42,141 bases of DNA, from assembly GCA_964550545.1 (NCBI GenBank), contig CAZJZN010000002.1, forward strand, positions 1 through 42,141, in the 5' to 3' direction. Positions within the stretch are counted from its first letter, which is position 1. Every line of letters begins with the position of its first letter. Of the stretch, positions 7,839 through 24,970 are shown in pieces. The notes below the pieces were generated by a model that was not told the DNA's origin, made no database searches, and was given only the letters and a program-made list of their open reading frames with translations. A program made the translations under genes and the position numbers. The DNA comes from an uncultured Bdellovibrionales bacterium (GTDB taxonomy: Bacteria > Patescibacteriota > Minisyncoccia > Moranbacterales > UBA1568).

Positions 7839-7990
7839 TATAGCAACCGCAAAACAAAACAGTGGGTTGCTCAGATTGCAAAAATAAATTTTTTTCACAC
7901 GTTTCACGAATGCTGATCCGACGTTCAAAAAATTTATTTTTGCAATCTTCGCGTGTGTTGAATCTAAGATTTTGTTTTGCGGGTGCTATA
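7839..7990. repeat. 152-bp nested quasi-palindrome in a divergent intergenic region
   Basis: Outer arms 7839-7859 tatagcaaccgcaaaacaaaa versus 7970-7990 ttttgttttgcgggtgctata match in 20/21 positions. Inner arms 7874-7894 gattgcaaaaataaatttttt versus 7927-7947 match in 21/21. The right outer arm ends on the A of the ATG at 7990. Confidence 0.6.
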
Positions 7991-9213
7991 TGAATCGATT
8001 TCTGGTTATTGTTGGGAAGGCGTATTCCGCAATTCGCCGCGGCGGAATTGTTGGCGGTGGGCGCCGAATCGCTGTGGCGATCGGAGAATTTTTTCGTTTC
8101 GTCGGATCGGGCGACATACTCTTTATTGCGAGCGGAACGGGTGATAGCGCTCGATACCGATGTCGACATATCGCGGAAGCGCTTCGGTTTCGCGGGTTCA
8201 AAACGGCGGTGGCGACGCAGGATAACCTGTTTCTTTCGAAGTATGCCGACAAATTTTCCATAATTGTTTTTCATCGCGTATCGTGGACGCCGAAAATTGA
8301 AAAACTTTTAGACACGCTTTGTGAACGAAAAAAGGCGGTTCTCTTTGATACGGATGATTTGATATTCGACGCGGATCTCTTCAAAAAGACCGCCGCATAT
8401 GGAACAATGAACGCGTTGGAGCGGAAGCAGTATGATGCTGGCGTCGGAAAAGAATTTTTGCAGCATCCGGCAATCGCGGCTTTTTCGACGAGTACGGCGT
8501 TTCTTGCCGATCGACTTCGCCCGTTCGGAAAACCCGTTTTCGTTGTTCCGAATCGGCTCAGTGAAGAAGACGTGAAGAATGCGGAAAGAAGAAGAGAATG
8601 GAGAATGGAGAATGGAGAATGGAGAAAATACAGTGAAGGAAAAAATACACATTCAACATTTCACATTCCAACCCCTGTCGTCATCGGGTATTTCAGCGGA
8701 TCGACCGGACACGATCGGGACTTTGGGACGGTGGCGAATGTTCTTGCTGAACTGTTGGAAGCGCATTCGAACGTACGGCTTTTTATTGCCGGACCGCTGA
8801 TGTTTTCCGGGGCGCTTGAAAAAGTTCGGGATCGGATTATGCGAATTTCGTATGTGTCGCGTCCGAATCATTTCAAAAACCTCGCACGTATCGATATTAA
8901 TATCGCGCCACTCGAAATCGGTGATCCGTTTTGTGAAGCAAAGAGCGAACTCAAATTTTTCGAGGCGGGACTCGTTGGTGTGCCGACGGTCGCCACGGCG
9001 ACCCGGACATTCCGCGAAGCAATCCATGATGGCGTTGATGGATTTGTGGCGATGAATGAGAGTGAATGGCGAGAGAAACTTGAACGGCTTATTCTTGATA
9101 TCGATCTTCGGAAGCGTATGGGCGAGAGAGCGAGAGAAACGGCGCTTGAGAGGTATTCGACGAAAACGGCGCAGGATGACGAATACGTTAATTTTCTTAA
9201 GGAACGCGTATGA
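7990..9213 (+). CDS. GT-B fold glycosyltransferase (GT1/GT4-like C-terminal domain) with a low-complexity interdomain insertion
   Basis: The ORF track start at 7972 is TTG, and the ATG at 7990 (MNRFLVIVGKAY) is more plausible. The C-terminal domain carries CEAKSELKFFEAGLVGVPTVAT (E-x7-E-like). The insertion RREWRMENGEWRKY is encoded by a 7-nt tandem repeat. Confidence 0.8.
   Translation: MNRFLVIVGKAYSAIRRGGIVGGGRRIAVAIGEFFRFVGSGDILFIASGTGDSARYRCRHIAEALRFRGFKTAVATQDNLFLSKYADKFSIIVFHRVSWTPKIEKLLDTLCERKKAVLFDTDDLIFDADLFKKTAAYGTMNALERKQYDAGVGKEFLQHPAIAAFSTSTAFLADRLRPFGKPVFVVPNRLSEEDVKNAERRREWRMENGEWRKYSEGKNTHSTFHIPTPVVIGYFSGSTGHDRDFGTVANVLAELLEAHSNVRLFIAGPLMFSGALEKVRDRIMRISYVSRPNHFKNLARIDINIAPLEIGDPFCEAKSELKFFEAGLVGVPTVATATRTFREAIHDGVDGFVAMNESEWREKLERLILDIDLRKRMGERARETALERYSTKTAQDDEYVNFLKERV
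8594..8626 (+). repeat. Heptanucleotide tandem repeat (GAGAATG x4 plus a partial GAGAA) inside a CDS
   Basis: Read directly: gagaatg at 8594, 8601, 8608 and 8615, then gagaa at 8622. The unit length is not a multiple of 3. Confidence 0.9.
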
Positions 9214-10160
9214 ATATTTTGGTAACGGGCGGAGCGGGATTTATCGGATCGCATCTCACGAAAAAACTGGCGGAGCGCGGCGATCACGTGATTATTCTCG
9301 ACAACTTCAATGATTATTACGATCCGCAATTGAAGCGCGATCGGATCGGTATTTTTTTGAAGGGCGTTGATTTCAAACTCTTTGAAGGCGATATCCGCGA
9401 CGCGAAACTGGTGGAAGGTGTTTTTTCGGAGGAGAAAATAGACAAGGTGGTCCACTTGGCGGCGATGGCGGGTGTGCGGAATTCGCTTGATGACCCCGTT
9501 TCTTATGCCGATATCAATGTAAATGGTACGGTGATACTTCTCGAGGCGGCGCGGAAGCGTGGTGTGGAAAACTTTGTGTACGCATCTTCTTCGAGCGTCT
9601 ACGGCAAGAATGAGAAGCAACCGTTTTCCGAGAGCGATTCGGTGGATATGCCGATTTCTCCGTACGCGGCGAGCAAAAAAGCCGATGAACTTTTCGCTCA
9701 TGTTTGGAGCCATATCTACGGACTCCCGACGACGGGACTCCGATTCTTTACCGTCTATGGTCCATGGGGGCGCCCCGATATGGCGCTTGGAATCTTCACC
9801 AAGAACATTTTCGAAGGGAAGCCGATCGAAGTGAATAATTATGGCAAGATGAGTCGAAACTTCACGTATGTCGACGATATCGTTTCGGGAATACTTGTCG
9901 CGCTCGATGGAAACTTCCCGTATGAAGTGATGAATATCGGCGGTGATGCGGAAAACACGCTTCTCGAATTTATCGAAGAGATCGAAAAAAACTCCGGCAA
10001 AAAAGCGGAAAAGAAAATGATGCCGCTTCCGCCGGGCGATGTCGTTTCGACGGTCGCGGATATCTCAAAACTTCGCGCGCTTGGTTGGGCGCCCTCGACT
10101 CGCATCGATGTCGGTATCAAGAATTTCGTTGATTGGTACCGGGAGTATTATCGAGTGTAG
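9210..10160 (+). CDS. NAD-dependent epimerase/dehydratase, UDP-glucuronate 4-epimerase-like (extended SDR)
   Basis: GGAGFIGSH Rossmann motif, SSSSVYG, and YAASKKADE (YxxxK) are present. The NFNDYYDPQLK segment is typical of the UDP-GlcA 4-epimerase subgroup. ATGA overlap with the upstream GT. The 3' end overlaps the convergent gene by 44 nt. Confidence 0.8.
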   Translation: MNILVTGGAGFIGSHLTKKLAERGDHVIILDNFNDYYDPQLKRDRIGIFLKGVDFKLFEGDIRDAKLVEGVFSEEKIDKVVHLAAMAGVRNSLDDPVSYADINVNGTVILLEAARKRGVENFVYASSSSVYGKNEKQPFSESDSVDMPISPYAASKKADELFAHVWSHIYGLPTTGLRFFTVYGPWGRPDMALGIFTKNIFEGKPIEVNNYGKMSRNFTYVDDIVSGILVALDGNFPYEVMNIGGDAENTLLEFIEEIEKNSGKKAEKKMMPLPPGDVVSTVADISKLRALGWAPSTRIDVGIKNFVDWYREYYRV

Positions 10161-10845
10161 CGTCTTCTTTTGAGGAAAAAGAGAGCGTGAAAAAAAGAAA
10201 CGCGTACGAAAGCCCGACTGAAAGGGCGATGAGTGCTCCCAAGAATGCCCCCTTCAAAAACCACGGTTTGTATTGCGAGATCCGATGATTGAGTTCGACG
10301 ATATCAGCGAAGAGGCTTGCGTTTCGATAGACGGGTCGGAGAGCGAGTGATTCTCCCGGACGGAGCTCGCCATTTATGGAGAGGGAAAGTTTTTCGTTGG
10401 GGAGGGTATTGGGTATGGCGAAAACAGCGGCTTTCTTGGAGCCTTTTTCGGGCGTGAAGTTCGTCTTGAAGCAAAAGGCTTTCCCATCTGAGTCAGGGAG
10501 AGGGGAGAAGAAAAAGTCGGTCGAGTTCTCGGCATTCAACGTTCGTACGAACCGCCTCTCTTCTCGGAGTGTTGTTTTGCAGTGTTCATCAAGAATGGCG
10601 AACGAGAGGGTACCGCCTTCCTTGATGCTCGAACCGCCAAAGAGGACATTCACACCCGAAAGTCCATTGCGTCGCGCGACAAAGGTTTGCGTCGCGCCCG
10701 CCTCGTCGAGCTTTATCTTCTCGCCCTTCTCCATCGGGAAGTGCGTGTCCGGAAATCCAAATTGTCGTTGCAGGTTTGCAAAAACGAGCATGGTTAATAC
10801 GGCGATACTTGCCAGGAAAACAGTTTTGGATGAAGGTCTTTTCAT
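10117..10845 (-). CDS. Bitopic membrane protein (N- and C-terminal TM segments), function unknown
   Basis: The ORF track start at 10950 runs through a GC hairpin repeat (translated WIPAFAGM). The ATG at 10845 gives MKRPSSKTVFLASIAVLTMLVFANL, a signal-anchor-like N-terminus. A C-terminal TM segment GAFLGALIALSVGLSYAFLFF is also present. Confidence 0.55.
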   Translation of the reverse strand: MKRPSSKTVFLASIAVLTMLVFANLQRQFGFPDTHFPMEKGEKIKLDEAGATQTFVARRNGLSGVNVLFGGSSIKEGGTLSFAILDEHCKTTLREERRFVRTLNAENSTDFFFSPLPDSDGKAFCFKTNFTPEKGSKKAAVFAIPNTLPNEKLSLSINGELRPGESLALRPVYRNASLFADIVELNHRISQYKPWFLKGAFLGALIALSVGLSYAFLFFTLSFSSKEDATLDNTPGTNQRNS

Positions 10846-10867
10846 AGGAAGTATTGTCTCATTCGGC

Positions 10868-10887
10868 ATTCCCGCGAAGGCGGGAAT
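10868..10887. repeat. REP-like GC hairpin (attcccgc-gaag-gcgggaat)
   Basis: 8-bp perfect stem with a 4-nt loop in the spacer between two minus-strand genes. It translates as IPAKAGI / IPAFAGM in spurious ORFs on the two strands. Confidence 0.6.
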
Positions 10888-10966
10888 CCAGACTCCACCA
10901 GCTAAACATTTCATCTCTACAAACGAAACTCGTAGAGTGCTCTTTCTCAAGCACGTGGGACCTGGG

Positions 10967-10995: not shown

Positions 10996-12435
10996 TTACA
11001 AATAGAAGCGCGGAAGGATGACATCTATGGTGAGATAGAGTGAAAAGAAAAAGAGAAGGAGAACGCTGCCTAAGAGGATATTTTTGAAGTATTCTCGTTT
11101 TCCGAAAAGCATACCGAGTCCGACCATGACGAGGATGAAGTGGGTTGCGAGATTGGGGAGAAAGTAACGTCCCGGCGTGCCGAGTTCGATCGAACCGATC
11201 GCGTGGAACACATTCCAGTCCGCGAGGCGGATGCCGAGTTGGAGCGCGATGATCATGGCAATGAGGAAGAAAATGAATTTCTTCTCGGGTAAGAAATCGG
11301 GTTTGTTTCTTGTAAAGAGAAAGAGGATGAGTCCGATCACGGAGACTGCCTGAATCGGCCAGAGGATAGTGGTGAGATTGTTGACGATGAGGTCGTCATT
11401 CCACCCGAGCGATCCCCAGTACGTGCGCGAGGAGAGTGCGAAGCGTCCCGGCGTGAGGCTCTTGTCGAGATAGTCGCCAAATGAAAGGATCGTTTCGGTG
11501 GCGGATCCTTTGAATGGGAGAAATTCCGAGAGCGAGTATTTCGTTTCAAGCAGGGAATTGGCAATGAAGAACACGCCGGCGAACAGTGTCGCGGAGAGGA
11601 GAATTTTCTTAGGATTTTTGGCTTTCTTGAAGAGATGGAATCCGACAAGTCCCAGGAAGACAACGAAAAGGATGACCGCTGTTCCTTTGGTAAAAACGCC
11701 GATTGCGATTGCGGTTATCATTATGGAAATATTCTTCCAATTGAGTCCGTCACGAAGACTCAAGACGGCACCCCAGGTAAAAAGGAAGAAGAGTGGGATG
11801 AGGAGCGCGTCGTAATTGATATTGGCGGTGTACATCGAAAATTTCGGTTGGAAGGCGACGAGCGCCGCGAAGAGCGTTGCGATGAATGAAGAAAACCCGA
11901 TCGCTCTCGCGATACAAAAGGCGAGGAGGACGGCGATTGTCCCCAGGAATACCGAGAAGATTCGAATCGAATAGAATCGGACGAGAATGTTTTCTCCGGC
12001 AAGCGCTTTTTCGATGGGAGCGGCAAGGGTGTGATAGAGGCTTCCGTTCACGACATCCGGATATTCAAAGAGAGTGTATGGTCGCCATTTTCGTTCGAGG
12101 ATGTCGCGCTCATTTTTCCCTTCGGAGCTCTCCGAAAAGTCCGTCGTATTGTAGAGACCGCTCCGGATATCGTTGATACCAGATGCCGTACCGGCATTCT
12201 GAATTTCTTCGGAGAAATTATAATCGGAGAATACGTCTCGGTTCGCTTTGGCTTTTCTGTCACTCTTTTCCCAATTTTTGTCCGTCGGCTCATTGATGTA
12301 CTGTACGGAATTGTAGTGTCGCGCCTCGTCTTGCCCGGTAAACATTGGAAAGAGCGTCGCCACAAAAACGCCCTTCAAGAAGAAGGTGACAAGGAGGAGG
12401 GAAAGGAGGAAGGCTGGCTTCTGGAAGATTCTCAT
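10996..12435 (-). CDS. Polytopic membrane protein, DUF2142/GT-C-like putative glycosyltransferase
   Basis: 479 aa. The first loop after TM1 carries PMFTGQDEARHYNS (a DE..H acidic motif as in PMT/DUF2142-type GT-C proteins). It is followed by a ~100-aa loop and more than 9 hydrophobic segments. Confidence 0.6.
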   Translation of the reverse strand: MRIFQKPAFLLSLLLVTFFLKGVFVATLFPMFTGQDEARHYNSVQYINEPTDKNWEKSDRKAKANRDVFSDYNFSEEIQNAGTASGINDIRSGLYNTTDFSESSEGKNERDILERKWRPYTLFEYPDVVNGSLYHTLAAPIEKALAGENILVRFYSIRIFSVFLGTIAVLLAFCIARAIGFSSFIATLFAALVAFQPKFSMYTANINYDALLIPLFFLFTWGAVLSLRDGLNWKNISIMITAIAIGVFTKGTAVILFVVFLGLVGFHLFKKAKNPKKILLSATLFAGVFFIANSLLETKYSLSEFLPFKGSATETILSFGDYLDKSLTPGRFALSSRTYWGSLGWNDDLIVNNLTTILWPIQAVSVIGLILFLFTRNKPDFLPEKKFIFFLIAMIIALQLGIRLADWNVFHAIGSIELGTPGRYFLPNLATHFILVMVGLGMLFGKREYFKNILLGSVLLLFFFSLYLTIDVILPRFYL

Positions 12436-12704
12436 AGGGTGAAGTATACTGGAATTGAGCGTTTTTTGGTAGACTCTATATGATCGTCTCCGGAGAGGGC
12501 GGTTTTGGTGCGATTCCTTTATTCATACTTTTCTCTGAATAAAGGAAACGAGAATTCCCGGTTTCCGAGAAATTTTTTCGTTATGTCGAACTCTTCCTCT
12601 TCTTCCCCGACCACGCGAAGTGGATCCTGAAATTGCTGGAATATGTGAAGGGATTGGAAGGGGGGTGAAGGAAGCATATTGTTCCCATTCTTGTTTGAAA
12701 TAGT

Positions 12705-13556
12705 ATGTTTATGAAAAAAAACCTTTACGAAAATATTTATAACAAAGCCGGTTATTTTAGTTTCGGGAAAAACTGGAGTGATTTTTTGGATTCCGCCTTT
12801 GACGAAAATCGACTTAATATTGCAAAGCAATCACTTATTGATTTTCTTGGTGGAGAAGAGAGAATTTCCGGAAAAACTTTCATTGATATCGGTTGCGGAA
12901 GCGGACTCTTTTCTTTGGCCGCGCTTCTTTTGGGGGCCAAAGAAGTAGTAAGTGTGGATATTGATGAAAATTCAGTTGCTTGTGCGCGTCGCTTACGGGA
13001 GAAGTTTCAGCAACTAAAAAATTGGAAAGTGCTTACCGGTTCAGCTTTGGACAAGGATTTTATTCTTTCTCTTGGTCAATTTGATATTGTTTACTCTTGG
13101 GGAGTGCTCCATCATACCGGAAATATGTATCAAGCTCTGGATAATGTAAGCAATCTTATGAAACCGGATGGAATTTTTTATCTCGCTCTTTACAATCGAT
13201 GTCGGAGTTGGTGGATTGGCACCTCCACGTTTTGGCTAAAGGTAAAAAAACTTTACAATCATTCGGGTGTTACCGGGAAAAGACTCATTTTTTATTGTTA
13301 TGTTGTTTATTTTTTTCTTGATTCTTTCATTGCTCTAAAAAATCCGTTCAAGCGCATGAAAGCCTTTAAGCGGCGCGGAATGAACTGGGAACACAATGTT
13401 ATTGATTGGCTCGGCGGGTATCCGTATGAGTTTGCTGGTCCCGATGAGATTGTGAATCATTTTTCTCCTCAAGAGATATTTTGCATAAAGATGACAAATT
13501 CTTATGGTCTTGCATGTGTTGAGTACCTGCTGCAAAAAATAAGCACAGTGAAATGA
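12705..13556 (+). CDS. Class I SAM-dependent methyltransferase
   Basis: Motif I FIDIGCGSGLFSLAALLLGAKEVVSVDID and post-I/II DIVYSWGVLHH are present. Confidence 0.85.
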   Translation: MFMKKNLYENIYNKAGYFSFGKNWSDFLDSAFDENRLNIAKQSLIDFLGGEERISGKTFIDIGCGSGLFSLAALLLGAKEVVSVDIDENSVACARRLREKFQQLKNWKVLTGSALDKDFILSLGQFDIVYSWGVLHHTGNMYQALDNVSNLMKPDGIFYLALYNRCRSWWIGTSTFWLKVKKLYNHSGVTGKRLIFYCYVVYFFLDSFIALKNPFKRMKAFKRRGMNWEHNVIDWLGGYPYEFAGPDEIVNHFSPQEIFCIKMTNSYGLACVEYLLQKISTVK

Positions 13557-14926
13557 AAATCATAATTTCTCTTTCTGATGGAATGGTTGAGAGGAATCTG
13601 TTGAAAACGGATTTTTGGTCGTATTTGACTCAGGAAAAAGAACTGGAAATAATATTGATTTCTTCGAGTAATGAATATTTCAATTATCTTGCAAAGCGCT
13701 ACGCTTCACCAATGGTGAAAGTTGTTTATGAACAATATTCTATTGGTTTAATTGATGCGTTTCTTTCATACCTTACAAGAAATAGTATTCATAGTTGTAC
13801 AATAAAGGAAGAGCAATATAGTCAGAGAAAGGGAATTAATGGGCAGAAAAAAAGATCATTTCTTACATACTGTTCTTTTCGTCTCTGTTGGTATTTGGGG
13901 AAGTACTATTGGTGGAGAAAATTTTTGAGATTTTTGTATCGACATCTGAGTTCTTGTGGATATGCGGAAAGCGTATTGAGAAGGGAAAAGCCGGATTTGG
14001 TTTTTGTTCCATCCATCAATCCATCTGATTACAAGATGATTTGGCAGGCAAGACGGCAGAATGTGCGCTGCGTCCAAATGATAAAGAGTTGGGACAATTT
14101 GAGTAGTAAAACCTTTATGGCTGTCCTTCCAGATTACCTTGTTGTTCATAATAAAATAATAAGAGACGAAGCGGTATATTATGGCGATATGCCAAAAGAT
14201 AAAATTTTTATTTCCGGCATACCACAGTTTGATTATCTGGTTTCCAAGCGGGACGAAATCCTCATAAATCGAGAGGAATTTTACGCTGATCTCGGCATTG
14301 ATTCTTCTCAGAAGGTCATACTTTTCTCAGCTTCCGGAGATAGGATTAGTCCTCATGATGGCGATTATCTTCTTATGCTTGATGAGGCTATAGTGTGCGG
14401 AAGTCTTCCCCATGATACGCACATACATGTTCGGTTGCATCCAAAATATGATAGCAACTTAAAAGGTGTTGAAAAATTGAAACACGTCACAGTTGAGAGA
14501 CCTTTTTCTTATTTAACTAAAGATCACAGGGATTGGGTATTTGAGGAAAAGGATATGAAGCGTTGGTATAATTCCCTTTTTCACAGTGCTATGGTGGTAA
14601 ATGTTGCCTCTACGATGGCTATCGATGCGGCAGTGGTCGAAAGGCCAATAATATCTTTGGGCTTTGATGGATATGGTAAACTTCCCCTGTCTCAATCCGT
14701 CTCTAGATACTATGACCGAGATCATTACAGAAATGTAATAAAGACTGATGCAGTCTTACTGGTTAGGAGCGAACAGGAGTTTATAAATGCTGTTCGCTGT
14801 TATCTCAAAAATCCTCTCCATAAGGAAAATAAACGGAGGAAGCTGGTTGAACAGCAGTGTTACAAAATTGATGGAAATGCTTCAAGCCGATTAGCTGATT
14901 TTCTTCTTAACTTAGTAAAGGGTTAG
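13553..14926 (+). CDS. Uncharacterised protein, paralog A (putative GT-B-like surface-carbohydrate biosynthesis enzyme)
   Basis: 457 aa with an ATGA overlap with the upstream gene. It is colinear and homologous to 16320..17672 (shared SWDN, PDYLVVHN, RDEAV, GIPQFD, IDAAV, YYDRDHYR, QQCYKIDGNASSRLADFLL). I recognise no named family with confidence. Confidence 0.7.
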   Translation: MKIIISLSDGMVERNLLKTDFWSYLTQEKELEIILISSSNEYFNYLAKRYASPMVKVVYEQYSIGLIDAFLSYLTRNSIHSCTIKEEQYSQRKGINGQKKRSFLTYCSFRLCWYLGKYYWWRKFLRFLYRHLSSCGYAESVLRREKPDLVFVPSINPSDYKMIWQARRQNVRCVQMIKSWDNLSSKTFMAVLPDYLVVHNKIIRDEAVYYGDMPKDKIFISGIPQFDYLVSKRDEILINREEFYADLGIDSSQKVILFSASGDRISPHDGDYLLMLDEAIVCGSLPHDTHIHVRLHPKYDSNLKGVEKLKHVTVERPFSYLTKDHRDWVFEEKDMKRWYNSLFHSAMVVNVASTMAIDAAVVERPIISLGFDGYGKLPLSQSVSRYYDRDHYRNVIKTDAVLLVRSEQEFINAVRCYLKNPLHKENKRRKLVEQQCYKIDGNASSRLADFLLNLVKG

Positions 14927-14929
14927 AAG

Positions 14930-16315
14930 ATGATTCATGAATTTTACAAAAGGTTGGCGATGGGGGAGGTAGTAAATAGCCTCTTTATTGTTGCAACAAA
15001 GCCATTGACGCTTATAAATTCACTCGTTGTCATAGGGCTTTTGAGTCTTCATGACTTTGGTGTGTACAGGCTTGTTATGTCTTTTCAGGCGTTAATTTCG
15101 GGATTCTCAATAAATTTTCTTGATAATCTCGTATTAAACGAAATGAATGTGCATCATGGTGAAAAACGGGCATTTAAGGCGAAGCGCATATTTGCAGAAT
15201 ACGTTGTATTAAAGGTGATCATCGGGGCAATTCTTACTGTCGGAGTGTTTTTTTTGGCTGATTTCATCGGGAGGTACTATGACTCAATGGAAGGTATAGG
15301 ATCGTGGATACGTATTATTTCATTTCTCTTCTTGATAGAAAATATTCATTCACTCGCCGTCACTTTTCTGCAGTATCGTCTTAATTTTTTTCTTTCGTCA
15401 TTTTATCTTTTTGCTTACGAAGGAGTGAAACTTATATTTATTCTCGCACTCTATTTTTTCGGAAATTTTGGAATTTCCGAAGTTCTCATACTTACAGTTT
15501 TTTCTCACCTGATAGTTTTTCCATTTGTCCTTATCCCGAGTTTTCGCGGATATTTTGAGAAAAGCGCGGGTGATTCCAAATCAGTTTCATCGGGATTCGG
15601 CTCACCCTTTGTTGCTCTGATACGGCAATGCGGATTTTGGACGGTAGCAAGATACTATCTTTTGAATTTTTCCCAAAATATTCGACCGTGGGTAGTGAAA
15701 TGGTTACTTGGGACGGAAGCAGTTGCGATATTCAGTGTGGCTTTGAGCTTTCTTGGGAGCTTAAAGAGTTTCATTTCTTTTAATTCGCTAAAAGTATACC
15801 TTCCAAGAGAATCTGGAAAAAGAGATCGGATGCGCGAGATTGTGTCGCGTGGAGGGAGGTATCTTACCTATGTTTTTTTCGCTCTATTTGTTTTTGGGAT
15901 TATTGCCGTTCCAATTGTGACAACGATATTTTTTCCGAAATACTGGTCATCCATGCCTCTTTTCTTTATTATGGCGGCATCAATGGTTTTTTTCGGCGTG
16001 TATACAATTTCCGGACAAATACTTTACTCTCTTCGGAGACAGAAGGATCTTTTTTTCGTGGCCATTGCAAGCGCTGTTTCAATGAGTATTTTTTCAATTA
16101 TTTTGATACCAGTCTTTGGTTTATACGGGGTTGCGCTTGAGTTTTTCTTGACTCAATTTGTTGCGCTTGCCGCTTCGCAATTTTTCCTCTTTCGGTATAA
16201 TTCAGAACTCAAATTTCAATGGAAAACCATGTTCATGTTTGATGAATATGATCGGGATCTCCTTCAAAAAGGAATAAAGTTTTTTAGGATGAAGGTTTTG
16301 AGGATGTCCTCGTAG
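14930..16315 (+). CDS. Wzx-like polysaccharide/oligosaccharide flippase (MOP superfamily)
   Basis: 461 aa with ~12 hydrophobic segments along the whole length. It has a typical Wzx size and sits within a glycan gene cluster. The assignment rests on architecture and context. Confidence 0.7.
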   Translation: MIHEFYKRLAMGEVVNSLFIVATKPLTLINSLVVIGLLSLHDFGVYRLVMSFQALISGFSINFLDNLVLNEMNVHHGEKRAFKAKRIFAEYVVLKVIIGAILTVGVFFLADFIGRYYDSMEGIGSWIRIISFLFLIENIHSLAVTFLQYRLNFFLSSFYLFAYEGVKLIFILALYFFGNFGISEVLILTVFSHLIVFPFVLIPSFRGYFEKSAGDSKSVSSGFGSPFVALIRQCGFWTVARYYLLNFSQNIRPWVVKWLLGTEAVAIFSVALSFLGSLKSFISFNSLKVYLPRESGKRDRMREIVSRGGRYLTYVFFALFVFGIIAVPIVTTIFFPKYWSSMPLFFIMAASMVFFGVYTISGQILYSLRRQKDLFFVAIASAVSMSIFSIILIPVFGLYGVALEFFLTQFVALAASQFFLFRYNSELKFQWKTMFMFDEYDRDLLQKGIKFFRMKVLRMSS

Positions 16316-16319
16316 CTCT

Positions 16320-17672
16320 ATGAAGACGATACTTATACCAATATTTCAAGGAGCCGAATCAAGAAGTATTTTGCGTACCGAAATTTTTCAGAAACTAAGA
16401 GCTGTTTCTGGTATCCGGATAGTTCTCCTTGTTCCAAATGAAGAGAAAAAGAAGTATTTCGGTTCCGAATTTTTTGGAGATAATGTTGTTTATGAGGTTG
16501 TCAAAAACTTTCAAGGGAATTTTTTTGACAAGGCCTTTACCTTTTTGAGGAAGAATCTTGTAAGAACGAATACGCTTCGTTTGAAAAGAAAGCAGGATTT
16601 TCTTTTGGGAGGAAATGCGGTGAAATATTTTTTTGAATGTATCTTTAGTTTCATTTTTGGAAGAAAGATGTGTAGGAAGGCGGTTCGATGGATTGATCAG
16701 AATCTTATTCCTGAAAAAGGGGCACAAAAGATATTTGATACTTTGATTCCAGATATTGTTTTGACTGCTCATATTTTTGGTGATATGGAAGCATCAATCT
16801 TAAAAGAAGCAAAAAAGCGAAGGATTAAGACTATCGGACTTATCAATTCGTGGGATAAAATTACTTCTCGCGGTATGGTGAGAGTTATCCCGGACAAACT
16901 TATCGTTCACAATGATACAATCAAAGACGAGGCAGTTCGTTTTATTGATATGTCACCGGATTCGGTATTTGTGCTTGGAATTCCGCAGGATGATGCTTTT
17001 TTTTCTTTTTATCCCAAAGATAAAGAGAAATTTTTTGGCTCTCTTGGAATTTCCACAGAAAAGAGAATACTTCTTATCTGTCCGATGGGAAAAACATACA
17101 GCGACGTCGACGCCGATATTATAAATGTAGTGACGAATTTTAAGGCGCAAGGACGTATTCCCGATGATCTCGCTATTTTGGTAAGATTTCCTCCAAATGA
17201 TAATATCGATGTATCCTTATTGAGAAATAAGGATTTGCTTGTATGGGAACAACCGGGTGTTCGTTTTGAGTCAACTCGCGGAATTGATTGGGACATGACT
17301 GAAATTGATGTTCAAAGGTTGGCATATACACTGCACTGTAGCGCTATGGTTATTTGTCCGCCGTCATCAATTTCTGTGGACGCGGCTATTTTTGATACCC
17401 CAATAATCAATATTCGCTTTGAAAGGTACGATCGTGAAAAGTTAAACATTAACGCTTACTATGAAATGGATCACTATCGTGCCATTGCTAAGACCGGCGG
17501 CATACGATTTGTTCAAGATGAAAACGAGCTATTGTTATGGATAAACAGATATGCGAACGATAGGAAACTTGATAGAATTGGCAGGAAAGAAATAGTTCGT
17601 CAACAGTGTCAATTTTTGGATGGGAAGTCCAGTTTTCGTATAGCGAATTTTGTGCTAGACTCGCTGGGTTAG
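16320..17672 (+). CDS. Uncharacterised protein, paralog B (putative GT-B-like surface-carbohydrate biosynthesis enzyme)
   Basis: 450 aa, full-length homolog of 13553..14926 (SWDK, PDKLIVHN, KDEAV, GIPQDD, VDAAI, YYEMDHYR, RQQCQFLDGKSSFRIANFVL). Confidence 0.7.
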   Translation: MKTILIPIFQGAESRSILRTEIFQKLRAVSGIRIVLLVPNEEKKKYFGSEFFGDNVVYEVVKNFQGNFFDKAFTFLRKNLVRTNTLRLKRKQDFLLGGNAVKYFFECIFSFIFGRKMCRKAVRWIDQNLIPEKGAQKIFDTLIPDIVLTAHIFGDMEASILKEAKKRRIKTIGLINSWDKITSRGMVRVIPDKLIVHNDTIKDEAVRFIDMSPDSVFVLGIPQDDAFFSFYPKDKEKFFGSLGISTEKRILLICPMGKTYSDVDADIINVVTNFKAQGRIPDDLAILVRFPPNDNIDVSLLRNKDLLVWEQPGVRFESTRGIDWDMTEIDVQRLAYTLHCSAMVICPPSSISVDAAIFDTPIINIRFERYDREKLNINAYYEMDHYRAIAKTGGIRFVQDENELLLWINRYANDRKLDRIGRKEIVRQQCQFLDGKSSFRIANFVLDSLG

Positions 17673-17706
17673 AGCCATTTTTAGTCTTCGGAAGTTGATA
17701 GAATTC

Positions 17707-17734
17707 TTGCTGTTTGTGCATGGTTAACTATACT
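17707..17734 (+). promoter_or_regulatory. Candidate sigma70-type promoter (TTGCTG-16 nt-TATACT) upstream of the 17766 gene
   Basis: Hexamers read at 17707-17712 and 17729-17734 with a 16-nt spacer, in the only sizeable gap (93 nt) of the plus-strand block. This is pattern-match only. Confidence 0.2.
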
Positions 17735-17765
17735 ATGAGTTGTATCGCTTTAAGAGCAAACCGCT

Positions 17766-18608
17766 ATGAAAATTGGCATGACAATCAAGAGAGTCATTCT
17801 TTTAGACAAAGAGGGTGAAGAATTGGCGAGCTTTGAAAAAGGCGCTGAAAAAAAGCTCGCTTCTTCCGATATTTATCCTGCTGTGATAGAAAATTATTTT
17901 TGGGATACAGAAAAACAGACAGAAAGTGCGGAAAAATATAAAGATCAAATCAAACGCGTTTACTATCAGGATGAAGTGGATGAAAAGGTAAGGAATATGC
18001 TTCAGGATGATCTTCGGAGAATTGAATTGGTCAAAAGCTTCAATTATGGTGTTACTGTTTTAGAAGTTGGATGCAGTGACGGGACGGTGAGTATAAAAAT
18101 TGCTGAATTACCTCAAGTAAAAAAAGTGCTCGGAGTGGACATTAGAAAATCAGCTATCAAAGACGGAAAGGCACTTATCAAGGATCTTCTTAAGAGAGGT
18201 GAAATTGGAGAGGAAACCGCAAAAAAGGTACTGTTGCTACATTCGGCAACTGAAACATTGCCAGCAAAATACGGTCAATTTGATTCGGTGTGTGCTTATG
18301 AAATTTTTGAGCACCTAGCGCCTCAAGATATGTTGCCCGTCTTTCAAAACCTGTATAAATTTGTAAAAAAAGACGGAAACTTCTTTATTAGCGTCCCGAA
18401 TCGTTTTCCTCATAAGAAGTATGACGCGCTTGGTAGAAGCCGTTGGCGCTGGTTTGATCACAGAAACTTCTTCAGTAAGTTGAGCTTGGAGATATTTCTC
18501 AAAAATTTTTTTGAGAAAGTGAAATTTTATCCCCTGTACAAGGGAGAAGATGTGAGTGATAGCATTTATCTTATTTGTGAATGTAAAGGAAAAAAATATG
18601 AGATCTAA
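17766..18608 (+). CDS. Class I SAM-dependent methyltransferase
   Basis: Motif I VLEVGCSDGTVSIKIA and acidic loop VLGVDI are present. FDSVCAYEIFEHL is followed by DGNFFISVPN. Confidence 0.8.
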   Translation: MKIGMTIKRVILLDKEGEELASFEKGAEKKLASSDIYPAVIENYFWDTEKQTESAEKYKDQIKRVYYQDEVDEKVRNMLQDDLRRIELVKSFNYGVTVLEVGCSDGTVSIKIAELPQVKKVLGVDIRKSAIKDGKALIKDLLKRGEIGEETAKKVLLLHSATETLPAKYGQFDSVCAYEIFEHLAPQDMLPVFQNLYKFVKKDGNFFISVPNRFPHKKYDALGRSRWRWFDHRNFFSKLSLEIFLKNFFEKVKFYPLYKGEDVSDSIYLICECKGKKYEI

Positions 18609-19431
18609 AATTGTTGCAGAGGTAGCATCCTCTCATAACGGAAATATCGAGCTTGCCAAGGAAATGATTCGCGTTGCCGCTCGAACCGGAGTGGATATTG
18701 TTAAGTTTCAGTCATGGCAAAGCAAGAATGTTGATAAAGATGATCCCGATAAGAAGCGCTACCAATCTCTTGAACTTACTGATGAGGCTCACTTTATTTT
18801 AAAGGAAGAATGTGAACGGTTAGGAGTGGAATTTATGACGACCTGTTATGATGCTGGACGCATTCCGTTTCTCAAGGAATTGGGTCTGAAGAAAGTTAAA
18901 GTGGCAAGTACGGATTTGAAGCATTATAACTTTCTTCAAAAACTTCGTGATAATTTTGAATTCGTTGTTGCTTCTACCGGGATGTCAGAAAAGGATGAAA
19001 TTCTCAAGGCATTGGATATTTTGAGGCAAGGAGAGTACAGTATTATGCATTGCGTATCCATTTATCCCTGTCCTTTGGAAAAGGCGAATCTCCGAAAACT
19101 TCTGTGGTTGAAGTCGCTTTCTGACTCCGTTGGTTATTCCGATCATACCGAGGGTATCGAGGCGGCTGTTTTTGCGCTGGGAATGGGGGTGAATTATGTT
19201 GAAAAACATTTTACTTTGGATAAAAACATGGAACAAGTTCCTCATACTGTCGGAAAGGGGATGAAGCCGATCACAACTCATATGATTGCCAGCGAGCCGT
19301 TGGTGTTTAAGGAAATTTGCGAATGGCGAGATAAGCTCGTTACAGCCTTAGGGAGCGGAAGCCTGGAAATACTCCCAGAAGAAAAATTGACCAGGGAGAA
19401 ATATACTGGCAGACTCGGAAAGAACAATTGA
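18598..19431 (+). CDS. neuB: NeuB-family nonulosonic acid synthase homolog (TIM-barrel only; no C-terminal SAF domain)
   Basis: IVAEVASSHNGNIELAKEMIRVAARTGVDIVKFQ, VASTDL, STGMS, HCVSIYPCP, GYSDHTEG and EKHFTLDK match the NeuB/PseI/LegI core. The ATG at 18598 overlaps the upstream stop. The protein ends at 277 aa, where the SAF domain would normally begin. Confidence 0.82.
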   Translation: MRSKIVAEVASSHNGNIELAKEMIRVAARTGVDIVKFQSWQSKNVDKDDPDKKRYQSLELTDEAHFILKEECERLGVEFMTTCYDAGRIPFLKELGLKKVKVASTDLKHYNFLQKLRDNFEFVVASTGMSEKDEILKALDILRQGEYSIMHCVSIYPCPLEKANLRKLLWLKSLSDSVGYSDHTEGIEAAVFALGMGVNYVEKHFTLDKNMEQVPHTVGKGMKPITTHMIASEPLVFKEICEWRDKLVTALGSGSLEILPEEKLTREKYTGRLGKNN

Positions 19432-19432
19432 T

Positions 19433-20617
19433 ATGTCAGAGAAAAAAAAGCGAAAAATTTGTTTTGTTATTACCAGCTTTATACACTACAGTCGGAATTT
19501 TTTGATATTGGAAGAACTTAATAAGAGAAATGATGTTGATTTACATATCGTCTTGGGTGGGGTGGTATTGTCCAGTAAGTATGCTTCACATACTTTTAAT
19601 GTGAGAAGCATACTTGAGAGTGAGCGTTTCGAGAATATTCATGAAATTTATTTCAATCTTGAGGGAGATCATCATATCGTGAAAGCAAAGACAGTCGGTT
19701 TCGGTATTGTGGAGTTTTCCTCGCTTCTTTACGCTATTCATCCAGATTTGTTGGTTGTAAGAGGCGATCGTTTTGAAGTGCTCGCAGCTGTGATTGCTGC
19801 CGCATATATGAATATTCCCATTGCTCACATTGAAGGTGGAGATGTGAGCGGAACACTCGATGAATCGGTTCGGCACGCGATAACAAAACTCTCGCACATA
19901 CATTTCGCCACTAATGAACCGGCAAGAGAAAGACTTCTCAAAATGGGGGAAAAGAAAGAGTTAGTATTTAATTTCGGCAGTCCGGATATTGAGGTGGTAG
20001 CACGAGCTGAAACGTGGAAATTAAATATGGCGAGTATTGATTTTGAAAATTTTGGGAGCGGAGCTCAATTCGATCCGAAAGAGGAGTATTTGATGGTTAT
20101 GTATCATCCGGTGAACACGGAGTACGAGCTTCTTTCGGGACACACAAAAAGTTTGCTCGATGCGGTGTATAAACTGAATAAGCAAGTGCTTTGGTTTTGG
20201 CCGAATTTTGATGCTGGGTCAGAGTATATTTCGCATGAATTGAGAATCTTTAAAGAAAGGACATCCCAGCATAAGATTAAGTTTTTGCGATATCTTCCCC
20301 CTAAACAGTTTTTGTCTCTTCTTGCGAATACCCGGTGTTTGATTGGGAATTCTTCCGCCGGAATAAAAGAATGCTCTTACCTTGGAATTCCGGTAGTGAA
20401 TATCGGGACCCGGCAAAATAAACGTTTGCGAGCAGAAAATGTGATGGATTGCAATAATGATACTAAAGAAATTTTCAATATAATCGGGGAGCAGTTACGT
20501 GTAGGGAGATATCCGGTCTCTCATTTGTATGCCTCGAATGATACGAGTAGGGAAATTGCAACTGTTTTGGCGGAAGTGGATCTTTATACACAAAAAGCTT
20601 TCACGGATTATCCGTGA
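19433..20617 (+). CDS. neuC: UDP-N-acetylglucosamine 2-epimerase (hydrolysing), NeuC-like
   Basis: GDRFEVLAAVIAAAYMNIPIAHIEGGDVSGTLDESVRHAITKLSHIHF is the hallmark 2-epimerase core. It starts 1 nt after the neuB stop. Confidence 0.85.
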   Translation: MSEKKKRKICFVITSFIHYSRNFLILEELNKRNDVDLHIVLGGVVLSSKYASHTFNVRSILESERFENIHEIYFNLEGDHHIVKAKTVGFGIVEFSSLLYAIHPDLLVVRGDRFEVLAAVIAAAYMNIPIAHIEGGDVSGTLDESVRHAITKLSHIHFATNEPARERLLKMGEKKELVFNFGSPDIEVVARAETWKLNMASIDFENFGSGAQFDPKEEYLMVMYHPVNTEYELLSGHTKSLLDAVYKLNKQVLWFWPNFDAGSEYISHELRIFKERTSQHKIKFLRYLPPKQFLSLLANTRCLIGNSSAGIKECSYLGIPVVNIGTRQNKRLRAENVMDCNNDTKEIFNIIGEQLRVGRYPVSHLYASNDTSREIATVLAEVDLYTQKAFTDYP

Positions 20618-20678
20618 TAGTGGCATCGGTGAAACTTTTTCTGCGATTTTTGCGGAAGTTCGGGATTTTTTGGATTTT

Positions 20679-21395
20679 ATGGACAAAAAAATATTGGCGG
20701 TTATTACCGCTCGGGGAGGATCAAAGGGTGTGCCTGGGAAAAATATCAAACTTCTTGGCGGAAGACCATTGCTTGCTTATTCAATTGAAATAGCTCGTAA
20801 GAGTCGTTTAATCACCGATCTTATTCTTTCGACTGATGATGAAGCAATTGCGTCGATTGGCCGCGAGTGGGGTATCGATGTTCCATTTCTTCGTCCAGCG
20901 GAACTTGCTACCGACACAGCTGGACATGTTGATGTAATGCAACATGCCGTTCGTTTTATGGAGGAAAGAAACGGAATGCAATACTATGGCGTCGTTATCC
21001 TTCAGCCAACATCTCCTTTTCGGCTGGTGGAGGATATTGATGAGGCGCTCAAAAAATTCGTTAATTCCGGTGCGGATAGCGCAGTAAGCGTAGTGGAATT
21101 GGAGGGAGATCACCCGATAAAAATAAAAAAAATGGAAGGAGATCGGGTACTTCCATATTGTTTTCCGGAACCGGAAGGCGTGCGAAGACAAGACTTGTCC
21201 GTAGCTTACAAAAGAAGTGGCGCGGTGTATGTAGTGAGGAGAAGTGTGCTAATGGAACAAGGAAAAATTTTTGGGGAGTACGTGGTGGGACACATTATTC
21301 CGAAAGAGAGATCGATTGATATTGATACCGAATTTGATTGGTTGAAGGCGGAATATATGTTTAAGAAACTTCAAGAAAAAGAACTTTTTGTTTAG
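20679..21395 (+). CDS. neuA: CMP-N-acylneuraminate (nonulosonate) cytidylyltransferase, NeuA-like
   Basis: The ATG at 20679 gives MDKKILAVITARGGSKGVPGKNIKLLGGRPLLAYSIE, the canonical CMP-NulO/CMP-Kdo synthetase N-terminus. LQPTSPFR is also present. The ORF-track extension from 20529 overlaps neuC and is rejected. Confidence 0.87.
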   Translation: MDKKILAVITARGGSKGVPGKNIKLLGGRPLLAYSIEIARKSRLITDLILSTDDEAIASIGREWGIDVPFLRPAELATDTAGHVDVMQHAVRFMEERNGMQYYGVVILQPTSPFRLVEDIDEALKKFVNSGADSAVSVVELEGDHPIKIKKMEGDRVLPYCFPEPEGVRRQDLSVAYKRSGAVYVVRRSVLMEQGKIFGEYVVGHIIPKERSIDIDTEFDWLKAEYMFKKLQEKELFV

Positions 21396-21396
21396 A

Positions 21397-21405
21397 GGGG
21401 GGGGG
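21397..21405. repeat. G9 homopolymer immediately after the neuA stop
   Basis: Read directly: tag a ggggggggg a, at the convergence point of the plus and minus gene blocks. Confidence 0.9.
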
Positions 21406-21462
21406 AGTATTATCGTGCAAATTTTTTCGGAAGAATGCCTTGGGGGAGCACTTTGAAGCATT

Positions 21463-22569
21463 TCATTTGGACGAAGAGAAAAGTTTCTCGTATTTTATAA
21501 TACCCGTATTTTTGTCGAAATATTTCTTTGCCGTTGTGTGGGCATTTCGTGAAAGAACATGCCAATTTGTTTCATTCTGGCTTTGTAAAATTTCCGACAT
21601 ATGGGTGATGTCTTTTGCAATTGCGCCGCATTGATTTGTCTCGATGATTGCGTCGAAATTGAGAAAGGAGAGAACTGGAGTGCCATGCTTGAGAGATTCC
21701 AGAATCGTATTTGGAAATCCTTCGTTCTCTGATGTGACGATGAGAAACGATGATTGGAGATAGAGCGACTTCAAATCGTGCGCAGAGGCTCCGGGAATGA
21801 ATGTGATGTTTGATATTTTTTGCACCCTTTCTCTTGTCTTTTCAAAAATTATACTGTTTGTTTTTGGCATCACCATGGTAAAATGCCATTCCGGAAACAG
21901 GAGCGCTAGGTCGATAAGTAAGTGCGGTCGCTTGAAAGGTTCGGAACGCCCAACCCAAATGGCGTTTTTTTGGAAGTGTCTTGCTTGGCGGGGTGGAATT
22001 TCTTGAAAATTTCTGATAGTGATAACATCCCCTCGATAGTGGGGAAATGTATTGAAAAAGAGAGAGCGATCTTCTTCGTTCTGCAGGATGAATGTGTCAA
22101 TAAGGTTGATTAAGCGAAAGAAAATTTTTCCATACAGCGTTCGATTGAGCGAACCGTCAATATTCCGTATATGCGAACTTTTAACAATGATTCTTGAGCG
22201 TGTAATTTTTCCCAAAAGAAGAATCTCTACCGTTTGCCAACTGACACCTTTTGTAAATAAAACCGCAGGGGAAATGTGGAGAAGAATTGTTGCCAATCTG
22301 AAAAAGTTTTGTGCAGAGGTTATAATATTGCCACTATTTTTCTTCTGACCTCTGTGGAGAGTAATTTCGCGCACGATTTCTGTTTTTTTCTGTTGACCGA
22401 AGTCTCCCACAATAAAGTGAACGTCGAACAATTTTTTGTCTAAAGATGTTGCGATGGAGTAAGTGTCAATCTCCGCACCTCCATACGCTGGATTTTCATC
22501 GGGAAAAAACAAGGGATATGCTCCCAAAAGAATAAATGTGATGCGTTGTTTTTTTTTGGCATTATTCAT
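21463..22569 (-). CDS. Glycosyltransferase family 4-like
   Basis: C-terminal ENEGFPNTILESLKHGTPVLS (E-x7-E) and N-terminal AYGGAEIDTY are present. 368 aa. Confidence 0.8.
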   Translation of the reverse strand: MNNAKKKQRITFILLGAYPLFFPDENPAYGGAEIDTYSIATSLDKKLFDVHFIVGDFGQQKKTEIVREITLHRGQKKNSGNIITSAQNFFRLATILLHISPAVLFTKGVSWQTVEILLLGKITRSRIIVKSSHIRNIDGSLNRTLYGKIFFRLINLIDTFILQNEEDRSLFFNTFPHYRGDVITIRNFQEIPPRQARHFQKNAIWVGRSEPFKRPHLLIDLALLFPEWHFTMVMPKTNSIIFEKTRERVQKISNITFIPGASAHDLKSLYLQSSFLIVTSENEGFPNTILESLKHGTPVLSFLNFDAIIETNQCGAIAKDITHMSEILQSQNETNWHVLSRNAHTTAKKYFDKNTGIIKYEKLFSSSK

Positions 22570-23230
22570 ATTCGGCTACTGCCCAAATCTCTCCAAATTG
22601 AATGGAGTATTTTTTTATGTGTAATCCCGCAAGATCGAGTTCTTTTTTGAAGGAAGCGAATGTATATTCGGTATAGTGTGTATTATCAAGTCGCCACACT
22701 GCGCCGATACTCTCTTTGTACAGGGTAAGCCAATCCCTGTCTATCATGGGAACCCTGATGAGAAATTTTTTTGAGAGCGGTCTTATTCTGTGGAGAAATT
22801 CAACTCGGTTCTCGATATGTTCCAGAACGTTGCTCAGTATGATGGCATTAAAGGTTGTTTTAAATGTGTATTTGGTCGCATCTCCACATATGAATTGAAC
22901 ATTCTTGTGGGAACAATCTTTTCGAGCCTTCTGTATGCTTCTGTTTAATATATCGATCCCAATAATTTCTCGAGCCTTTTTTGAAAGGTCTCGGGTTACA
23001 ATTCCGTTTCCGCAACCAACATCAAGCACGGTATCATTCGCCGTTATGTTTTCCAAGAAGAAATCGTGATATTTCATGATTTCATGTTTTGGACTTATCC
23101 CATGGTTGATTCGAGTGGCAAGCTGACCGATGAGGAAATACATAAAACTGTGAATGTTGCAGAGAGTTTTAATGATGAGTTTCATCATAAGATTTGAAGA
23201 TTTTAATATATTCATCAACTGATGCATCAA
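22562..23230 (-). CDS. Class I SAM-dependent methyltransferase
   Basis: Motif I VLDVGCGNGIVTRDL, then IGIDI and FNAIILSNVLEHI. The first codon at 23230 is TTG. ATG candidates at 23227, 23188 and 23185 are equally possible, so the start is ambiguous. Confidence 0.78.
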   Translation of the reverse strand: MMHQLMNILKSSNLMMKLIIKTLCNIHSFMYFLIGQLATRINHGISPKHEIMKYHDFFLENITANDTVLDVGCGNGIVTRDLSKKAREIIGIDILNRSIQKARKDCSHKNVQFICGDATKYTFKTTFNAIILSNVLEHIENRVEFLHRIRPLSKKFLIRVPMIDRDWLTLYKESIGAVWRLDNTHYTEYTFASFKKELDLAGLHIKKYSIQFGEIWAVAEYE

Positions 23231-24188: not shown

Positions 24189-24970
24189 AGAAACTTTCGT
24201 TTCAAATCTTTGATAAAACCGGGCGTGAGAATGACCGCGAGCGGTTCGAGGAGGAATCGGTATTCAAGCGGTGAACGGTGCAATTTTTTGATATAGCGAA
24301 TCTGTGTTTTTATGCACTGGTGCATTTGTTCGTTTTGGTGGTCGAACGAGAGACCGCTGTTCGCGTTTCTGTGGCACAGAAATTCTTGCAGATTATGATA
24401 GCGAGTTTTGGGTGATACGCGAAGCCAGAGTTCATAGTCTTGTCCGTAGTGCAACCGTTCATCATAATTTCCTGCATCTCGGATGAGGGGCGTCCGAAAC
24501 ATGACAGAGCTGTGCGCGAATGGATTTCTTCGTATAAGGGATCGTTTGATACTCTCATCGGACTCGGGGCATCGTACCGGATATCCGATGTCGTTTTTTT
24601 CGTTTCGATAATTACATCCCACAATGCCATGATCGGGATGTGCTTCTAAGAAGGCGATTTGCTTCTCAAGCTTTGAAGGTTCCCACCAATCATCACCGTC
24701 AATACGCGCGGTGTATGGTTCGGTAATGTTCGAGAGACCTTTGTTGAGCGATTTCGTAAGTCCGAGATTGTGCGTATTTTTTACAAGAAAAAACTTCTCT
24801 GAACCGAATGTCAATTGCCATTTCTTGAGTTTTGCAAATGTCCTGTCGGTTGAGTGATCATCAATCGCGATGATTCTGAAATCTTGAAATGTCTGCGCAA
24901 GGATACTCTCGAAGGCTTTGTCGAGGGTCGTTTCGGAATTATGGAGGGAGATGAGAATCGCGCATTTCAT
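24185..24970 (-). CDS. Glycosyltransferase family 2
   Basis: ILISLHNSETTLDKAFESILAQTFQDFRIIAIDDHSTDRT and the DxD region ARIDGDDWWEP form the canonical GT-A N-terminal domain. Confidence 0.88.
   Translation of the reverse strand: MKCAILISLHNSETTLDKAFESILAQTFQDFRIIAIDDHSTDRTFAKLKKWQLTFGSEKFFLVKNTHNLGLTKSLNKGLSNITEPYTARIDGDDWWEPSKLEKQIAFLEAHPDHGIVGCNYRNEKNDIGYPVRCPESDESIKRSLIRRNPFAHSSVMFRTPLIRDAGNYDERLHYGQDYELWLRVSPKTRYHNLQEFLCHRNANSGLSFDHQNEQMHQCIKTQIRYIKKLHRSPLEYRFLLEPLAVILTPGFIKDLKRKFL

Follow-up and report, generated by a model that had tools for sequence, protein, structure and literature searches.

One-unit length variation of a heptanucleotide array in the hinge of a predicted envelope glycosyltransferase gene of Moranbacteria

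Slipped-strand ON/OFF variation of surface-glycan genes is a textbook theme in host-adapted pathogens. The described case closest to the one considered here is neuO of Escherichia coli K1, an O-acetyltransferase gene of the CUS-3 prophage that carries a variable-number tandem repeat of the heptanucleotide 5'-AAGACTC-3' in its 5' coding region and is ON when the unit number is divisible by three; genomes carry 3-53 units, 66% are OFF, and a culture was composed of 93%, 2%, and 5% of alleles with 21, 20, and 22 units, respectively (PMC13001214). Here, we describe a comparable array in a stretch of 42,141 nucleotides (nt), hereafter the window, from an uncultured Bdellovibrionales bacterium (GCA_964550545.1, contig CAZJZN010000002.1). 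The array, four units of GAGAATG followed by GAGAA, lies inside a predicted GT4-family glycosyltransferase gene whose named homologs belong to Candidatus Moranbacteria/Moraniibacteriota, and an allele one unit shorter, recovered from two samples, breaks the reading frame. As in neuO, the unit is 7 nt long and lies within the coding sequence of an enzyme predicted to modify a surface glycan, the product is full length at every third unit number, and natural out-of-frame alleles arise by one-unit changes. However, the neuO tract is 5' and its switching was measured within cultures, whereas the present array occupies a mid-gene hinge, its variation is known from assembled sequences, and it belongs to a genome-wide family.

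Other repeat systems bear on the comparison as well. According to Lin and Kussell, species in which simple sequence repeats (SSRs) are tuned for phase variation have them enriched near N-termini and suppressed mid-protein (PMC3315296). In Haemophilus influenzae, heptanucleotide SSRs occur at the hmw1A/hmw2A promoters, and an (AATTTTG)14 tract with a frameshift lies 3.5 kb inside hmw1A (PMC2651432). There, too, strain-variable SSR units shift the frame of surface genes, and the tract within the hmw1A open reading frame (ORF) is directly analogous to ours; however, the H. influenzae tracts have 13-38 units and reside mainly in surface and host-interaction genes, whereas the arrays described here have about 4-5 units and reside mostly in housekeeping genes. 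Dispersed families form another class of relatives, and the cyanobacterial short tandemly repeated repetitive sequences are one such heptanucleotide family. TAACTGA heptamer repeats occur genome-wide in marine Beggiatoaceae and cyanobacteria, and a 2007 survey, as far as it is summarized in the same source, found heptanucleotides to be the commonest class of long SSRs and proposed slippage related to the polymerase footprint (PMC4679880). With these families the present arrays share one unit family at many loci, restriction to a lineage, and an excess of period 7. They differ in that the known families are mainly intergenic and often just upstream of gene starts, whereas most of the arrays here, by crude ORF calls, appear to be translated in frame within conserved proteins, and in that one array here varies by one unit and breaks a gene.

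The features central to the argument are as follows, in window coordinates.

7990..9213, plus strand: GT4-family GT-B glycosyltransferase gene, predicted product of 407 amino acids (aa) (Pfam, orthologs, structure model, and the ratio of nonsynonymous to synonymous substitution rates, dN/dS)
8563..8676, plus strand: hypervariable inter-domain linker, residues ~192-229 (ortholog alignment and model)
8594..8626, plus strand: perfect heptanucleotide array, (GAGAATG)x4 + GAGAA, encoding REWRMENGEWRK (Tandem Repeats Finder, shuffles, and the natural one-unit-shorter allele L020/L024)
8634..8636, plus strand: TGA stop met after gain of one unit or loss of two (simulated alleles; coordinates from the sequence)
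8798..8800, plus strand: TGA stop met by the N-terminal product after loss of one unit or gain of two (simulated alleles and the translation of L020)

Natural alleles were sampled from the 90%-identity protein cluster of the glycosyltransferase, which has six members. Five of these are full length and contain the peptide encoded by the array, and the tract is exactly 4.7 units long in all four full-length members whose DNA was read (the window, L016, L021/L025, and L022). The sixth member, P0121, is a protein of 202 aa whose sequence starts with MENGEWRK, from an ATG within the repeat; its ORF is mid-contig on a 16.4-kb contig found in two samples, and the in-frame counterpart contig was found in three. 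The 3-unit contig is represented in ERZ22666171 and the 4-unit contig in ERZ22679412. Relative to L021/L025, L020/L024 has one GAGAATG unit fewer (3.7 versus 4.7) and no other difference within the gene. Over 15.1 kb, L024 and L025 are separated by 12 substitutions, all within the first 954 nt, and the remaining ~14.2 kb contains no substitutions and two indels, one of which is the heptamer unit. One unit change set against zero substitutions in ~14,000 sites suggests an indel rate at the tract that exceeds the per-site rate of substitution by several orders of magnitude, unless selection has favored the change. Judging from these assemblies, a length-shifted, out-of-frame allele exists in nature as the consensus of two samples, and slippage at the tract is the most likely mechanism. 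Collapse of the repeat during assembly is unlikely because the k-mer given in the contig title (k141) greatly exceeds the 33 nt of the repeat. Repeat number therefore proves polymorphic among strains, a comparison that the first-pass annotation of this DNA had proposed as a check on its idea of a phase switch, but the spread is narrow, with 4 units in five of the six sequences and 3 in the other, unlike the broad range and the many OFF genotypes of classical contingency loci. A variable-gap pattern spanning the repeat recovered only the already known JGI contig among metagenome contigs and no hits among genome contigs.

The second indel, and the sole other difference in the ~14.2 kb, is a TG deletion (TGTG to TG; L024:9606 versus L025:10494). 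It cuts a 470-aa CapD/Polysacc_synt_2-like gene at a domain boundary into ORFs of 170 and 301 aa.

Direct reading of positions 8594-8626 gives GAGAATG four times and then GAGAA. Tandem Repeats Finder reports period 7, 4.7 copies, and 100% matches, with a score of 66 that is the highest in the window, and the 21-mer (GAGAATG)x3 appeared in 0 of 100 dinucleotide-preserving shuffles of the window. The tract is translated within the plus-strand ORF 7990..9213 as REWRMENGEWRK, residues 202-213 of 407, mid-gene rather than at the 5' end; an alternative TTG start at 7972 would give a protein of 413 aa. Simulated alleles with 1, 4, and 7 units are full length (400, 407, and 414 aa), and frame-breaking unit numbers yield products of 210-274 aa. 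With 0, 3, or 6 units translation ends at the TGA at 8798-8800, the 3-unit product being 267 aa in agreement with the translation of L020; with 2, 5, or 8 units it ends at the TGA at 8634-8636 with the residues ...MEKIQ, the 5-unit product being 217 aa. The first-pass annotation had reported this tandem repeat in the coding sequence and had argued that gain or loss of a unit would shift the frame and truncate the protein before its C-terminal domain; the repeat is real, and among the simulated alleles only 1, 4, and 7 units stay in frame.

The host gene is predicted to encode an enzyme of GT4 family and GT-B fold, with a C-terminal nucleotide-sugar domain and an N-terminal Rossmann-like domain. 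Its C-terminal half matches Pfam Glyco_trans_1_4, Glycos_transf_1, and Glyco_trans_1_2, all above cut-offs; NCBIfam gave sub-threshold matches only, to GT4 equivalogs, and an ortholog profile compared with the PDB matched the structures of BshA and TarM, with coverage limited to the C-terminal domain. The gene is conserved and under purifying selection, since an intact ortholog without internal stops was present in 40 of the 41 genomes sampled from the order and comparisons with sister strains and species gave a dN/dS of 0.2-0.6. A model computed with AlphaFold from 24 orthologs (mean predicted local distance difference test [pLDDT] score of 79; predicted template modeling score of 0.74) contains two alternating beta/alpha domains, and residues 210-225 are its sole segment with pLDDT below 50. 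In this model, the repeat spans the end of the last helix of the N-terminal domain (residues 192-207) and the start of the low-pLDDT segment, after which the first strand of the C-terminal domain follows at residues 230-235. The repeat thus sits at the low-pLDDT junction of the two domains, which agrees with the earlier placement of the repeat in the linker between two Rossmann halves.

Ortholog alignment points to the same junction. Columns 201-245 are the sole hypervariable stretch of the protein, varying in both length and sequence, and are flanked by the invariant or near-invariant motifs VPNRLSxED and IGYFSGSxGHDxDF; from VPN to GYFSG the linker measures 37-66 residues among 14 orthologs. 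In the sister species (~90% protein identity), the perfect heptamer tract is replaced by a 21-nt/7-aa ELGxRNK repeat whose unit consists of three degenerate GAATnnn heptamers, and L017/L018 differ from L019, within one 90% cluster, by an in-frame 42-nt (2 x 21-nt, 14-aa) segment, giving proteins of 413 and 399 aa. In the same hinge of other species of the genus, G005 (L004) has a perfect TCCATCT x3.7 array, G007 (L002) a degenerate GTCAACG x~4.5 array, and G006 degenerate AAGAATA-like units. The hinge is, as far as these alignments indicate, recurrently colonized by 7-nt arrays whose unit changes by lineage. In the species of G005, the glycosyltransferase shows no length variant, being 413 aa in all 15 listed of the 16 cluster members. 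Helicobacter pylori alpha-1,3-fucosyltransferases have heptad (7-aa, 21-nt) repeats C-terminal to the catalytic domain, where they form a dimerizing stem. The sister species' repeat resembles these in its 7-aa/21-nt unit and in-frame copy variants (1 versus 3 copies), but it lies in an inter-domain hinge, and in the species of the window the unit is 7 nt and single-unit steps leave the frame.

A second disruption of the gene was found in another species of the genus. L027 (ENA ERZ3756521; 2469-3599), of the P0017 cluster and 57% identical, has a GGA codon changed to the nonsense codon TGA precisely where the hinge begins, with a downstream ORF from a native Met 12 codons later, at a coverage of only ~7.6x. 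Both mid-contig disruptions found, L024 and L027, fall in the hinge; cluster members P0138, P0193, and P0198 were left out of this tally. P0129 (271 aa) was considered as a broken allele and rejected, its shortness reflecting a scaffold gap of Ns.

Shortly downstream of the array lies a further, imperfect tract.

8648..8670, plus strand: degenerate CACATTC x3.3 array, approximately the inverse complement (GAATGTG) of the main unit (Tandem Repeats Finder, 75% matches, score 32)

Pairing of this tract with the main array in a GAATG/CATTC hairpin or palindromic element was considered but is not supported. Three 5-bp GAAUG:CAUUC helices are predicted (-18.4 kcal/mol, z = -1.28), 16 of 200 shuffles fold as well as the two tracts together, and an inverted-repeat search reported no arm pair at the main array and the CACATTC tract.

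The array is one of many. In the window's own assembly (G000; 0.89 Mb, 82 contigs), ten perfect period-7 arrays reach 3 or more copies, compared with 4, 4, 0, and 2 arrays at periods 5, 6, 8, and 9, respectively. With the threshold lowered to 2.4 copies, period 7 has 50 arrays, period 8 has 1, period 9 has 6, and period 6 has 52. Period 7 is ~10-50 times commoner than neighboring non-triplet periods and accounts for 146 of 594 Tandem Repeats Finder rows. The AGAATGR unit family makes up six of the ten long period-7 arrays, and (GAATGRR)x3 has 35 matches on 14 contigs of G000, 25 in G006, and 13 in G007, with none in 38 other relatives and none for a reversed control. Hosts are mostly housekeeping genes: those for IleRS (four arrays), ValRS, LeuRS, GluRS, DnaG primase, and a GTPase of the EF-Tu family (GTP_EFTU domain), together with TatD, FemAB, Amidase_2, WecG/TagA, and Wzy_C genes and an Asp/Glu racemase gene in which the array supplies the C terminus; RpoC and DnaK were identified as hosts by eye only. 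Perfect, in-frame arrays of ~32-35 nt in such genes lie on contigs C1, C3, C4, C7, C8, C9, C10, C14, C19, C32, and C57 of G000 (for example, C10:19075-19107, C10:20555-20586, C8:19664-19697, and C1:50606-50640). All five long coding arrays are 32-35 nt (4.6-5.0 copies) and in frame, a uniformity that conservation of the frame predicts if three units were added to one pre-existing unit. By crude longest-ORF gene calls, 32 of 50 arrays lie in ORFs; the other 18 lie in non-coding sequence, which makes up 12% of the genome and is enriched in arrays. Arrays of this class are not concentrated in surface or host-interaction genes, the same class being found in housekeeping genes. The Wzy_C (O-antigen-ligase-like) gene contains one of these six, an identical GGAGAAT x5 array that appears as a short, repeat-derived replacement or insertion relative to the sister species; this array, with its GAGAATG-type unit, showed no length variation among the six species-level sequences.

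Loss of mismatch repair was considered as the specific cause of the arrays. MutL (PF01119) and MutS (PF00488) were not found in G000, and of the 41 genomes from the order a single one had a MutS match, so canonical mismatch repair seems to be missing order-wide. Because MutS is missing in 40 of 41 relatives, most of which are without the GAATGRR family, its loss does not explain the restriction of these arrays to one lineage, and this cause was rejected.

A separate array in the same assembly is longer. A (TCTTCAT/CATTCTT)n array with 8 or more units (C38:7820-7878 and C73:1-55; also C39:7699-7719) ends contig C38 and starts C73 and is the probable cause of the assembly break. On C73, the ATG of a 324-aa open frame lies immediately next to the array; this frame begins MYDLIIIGAGPAG and, by eye only, resembles a thioredoxin-reductase-type flavoprotein. 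The array is a candidate length-variable 5' region.

The glycosyltransferase gene lies within a large envelope-glycan region, and its stop codon overlaps the next gene.

9210..10160, plus strand: NAD-dependent sugar epimerase/dehydratase gene, overlapping the glycosyltransferase stop (ATGA) (Pfam Epimerase, E = 4e-60)

This epimerase gene adjoins the glycosyltransferase gene in sister strains as well, and a further GT4 enzyme and GT-C/PMT_2-like membrane proteins are encoded nearby. From ~12.7 to 26 kb, the window contains a low-GC cassette (GC 0.37-0.42) with two TagF-like glycerophosphotransferases, a Wzx-type flippase, NeuB, a UDP-GlcNAc 2-epimerase (NeuC-like), a cytidylyltransferase, GT2 and GT4 enzymes, and methyltransferases. 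Sister strain L025 is ~98% identical to the window until ~12.4 kb, where a different cassette with RmlD-like, CapD-like, carbamoyltransferase, and TylF-like genes begins (window ~12400-26300 versus L025:9100-16025). Since the cassettes of sister strains differ past this point, the repeat-bearing gene stands in conserved sequence that flanks a glycan cassette variable among strains. Between the two, at the junction of two minus-strand genes, the window has a 145-nt insertion relative to L025 (10850-10995) with a 14-nt inverted repeat at its ends (CCCGCGAAGGCGGG ... CCCGCCTTCGCGGG). It looks like a miniature mobile hairpin element and lengthens the ORF 10117-10950 to 277 aa from the 245 aa of sister strains.

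We favor, at a probability of roughly 60%, the reading that the array is a hypermutable by-product tract that toggles the glycosyltransferase gene de facto between whole and broken or split. Under this reading, a heptanucleotide microsatellite that is both young and perfect, a member of the lineage-specific, genome-wide GAATGRR-type family, would have settled in a hinge free of structural constraint that joins the two Rossmann-like domains of a conserved GT4 enzyme of the envelope, and it would change length in steps of 7 nt, with replication slippage as the most likely cause. At off-frame unit numbers, the N-terminal domain would read into an out-of-frame stop close by and be cut off from the C-terminal domain that binds the sugar nucleotide, and the shifted allele would probably lose some or all of its enzyme activity. 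The array itself may stem from a genome-wide tendency to generate repeats wherever in-frame insertions are tolerated rather than from selection for a switch. Because arrays of the same family occur in many housekeeping genes, the presence of the repeat is no evidence of selection for switching. Several observations weigh against this reading: there is only one variant allele among six species-level sequences; the TG deletion in the CapD-like gene of L024, together with the zero substitutions, hints at selection for glycan loss, which would favor an adaptive switch; the recurrence of frameshift-prone heptamers in the linker across species could come from selection for switchability; and L024 may contain an assembly error.

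Alternatively, the array may be an evolved contingency locus, a selected and reversible ON/OFF switch for one sugar on a surface glycan that would serve, for example, in phage escape or in changing attachment to a host bacterium. We regard such an evolved switch as unlikely, even though the locus has both the structure and the polymorphism expected of a slipped-strand switch: a frameshifting SSR in a glycosyltransferase gene, a large glycan locus whose neighboring cassette differs between strains of 98% identity, an OFF allele that is the consensus of 2 samples on a background identical to that of the ON strain, a second loss-type indel in the same glycan locus on the OFF contig, different heptamer arrays in the same linker of other species, and the precedent of neuO as a heptanucleotide coding-region switch of a glycan-modifying enzyme (PMC13001214). 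Of the surface-glycan contingency locus proposed in the first-pass annotation, the frameshifting repeat and the unit polymorphism stand, whereas the arrays in housekeeping genes and the five of six sequences at 4 units speak against the remainder. Four units are few beside the 3-53 repeats of neuO, with its 66% OFF; the array is mid-gene and not N-terminal, as it is in tuned phase-variable genes (PMC3315296); arrays of equal family and length reside in essential genes, where switching cannot be the purpose; and the gene is intact in 40 of 41 species. Moreover, neither the TCCATCT x3.7 array of the G005 species, among the 15 listed of 16 cluster members, nor the Wzy_C array with the same unit, in 6 sequences, varies in length.

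The remaining alternatives concern what the linker does. Two-polypeptide GT-B glycosyltransferases of the Alg13/Alg14 type are known, and the frameshift might by analogy yield separate N- and C-domain polypeptides that associate; an ATG is present in every unit, the 3-unit allele has an in-frame ATG heading an intact 202-aa C-domain ORF (P0121), and in L024 and L027 alike the N- and C-terminal Rossmann-like domains occupy two ORFs, in L027 through an independent nonsense codon at the linker start. Both mid-contig disruptions also fall in a linker that makes up ~6% of the gene, and the CapD-like gene on L024 is likewise cut at a domain boundary. We nonetheless give this idea only an outside chance, and equally little to its extension into a domain-splitting switch, in which slippage would be reversible, the C-terminal half would be made from the repeat ATG, and glycosylation would be altered rather than abolished. 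The N-terminal product of the 3-unit allele continues out of frame for 58 codons, past the start of the C-terminal ORF, so there is no stop-restart coupling; all 40 species representatives are single-chain, with a fixed split form in 0 of 40; the coverage of L027 is low; and gene callers always find some start near a break. Shine-Dalgarno-like cores, at 11% upstream of genes versus 12% inside genes in G000, are neutral on internal restart. Finally, a selected linker peptide or length "ruler," with an incidental DNA periodicity and the 3-unit form as a rare deleterious mutation or an assembly error, would be consistent with the 7-aa (21-nt) ELGxRNK-like repeat that the sister species keeps in the same place with in-frame variants (413 versus 399 aa) and with the exactly 4 units in five sequences spanning 2-3% divergence. 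We consider it highly improbable: the peptide is not conserved outside the species, both the linker peptide and its DNA being unalignable in the sister species at 90% protein identity, and selection on the peptide as such was rejected for this reason. The array itself shows no synonymous variation, none of the sequences examined encodes this peptide by non-repetitive DNA with synonymous differences, disorder is predicted for the region, the 3-unit contig comes from 2 samples, and collapse of a 33-nt repeat is unlikely at k141. Conservation of the peptide with synonymous variation, which the first-pass annotation had named as an argument against a slippery tract, was thus not seen.

In sum, no paper in the searchable library linked heptanucleotide-repeat or phase-variable switching to the Candidate Phyla Radiation, and the array documented here is the first concrete natural example that we could document of a Moranbacterial heptamer array changing by one unit with a gene-level consequence. 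Should the domain-splitting switch be correct, the hinge nonsense of L027 would represent the same solution reached through a point mutation. A frameshift-prone repeat in a surface gene of these genomes is, by itself, no evidence of an evolved switch, and caution is warranted wherever one is encountered. The one-unit allele supports slippage as a mode of evolution of the genome-wide 7-base arrays. In an episymbiotic, ultra-small bacterium, whose surface glycans probably matter for contact with phages and with the host, such arrays can give rise to standing variation between whole and broken forms of an envelope glycosyltransferase.

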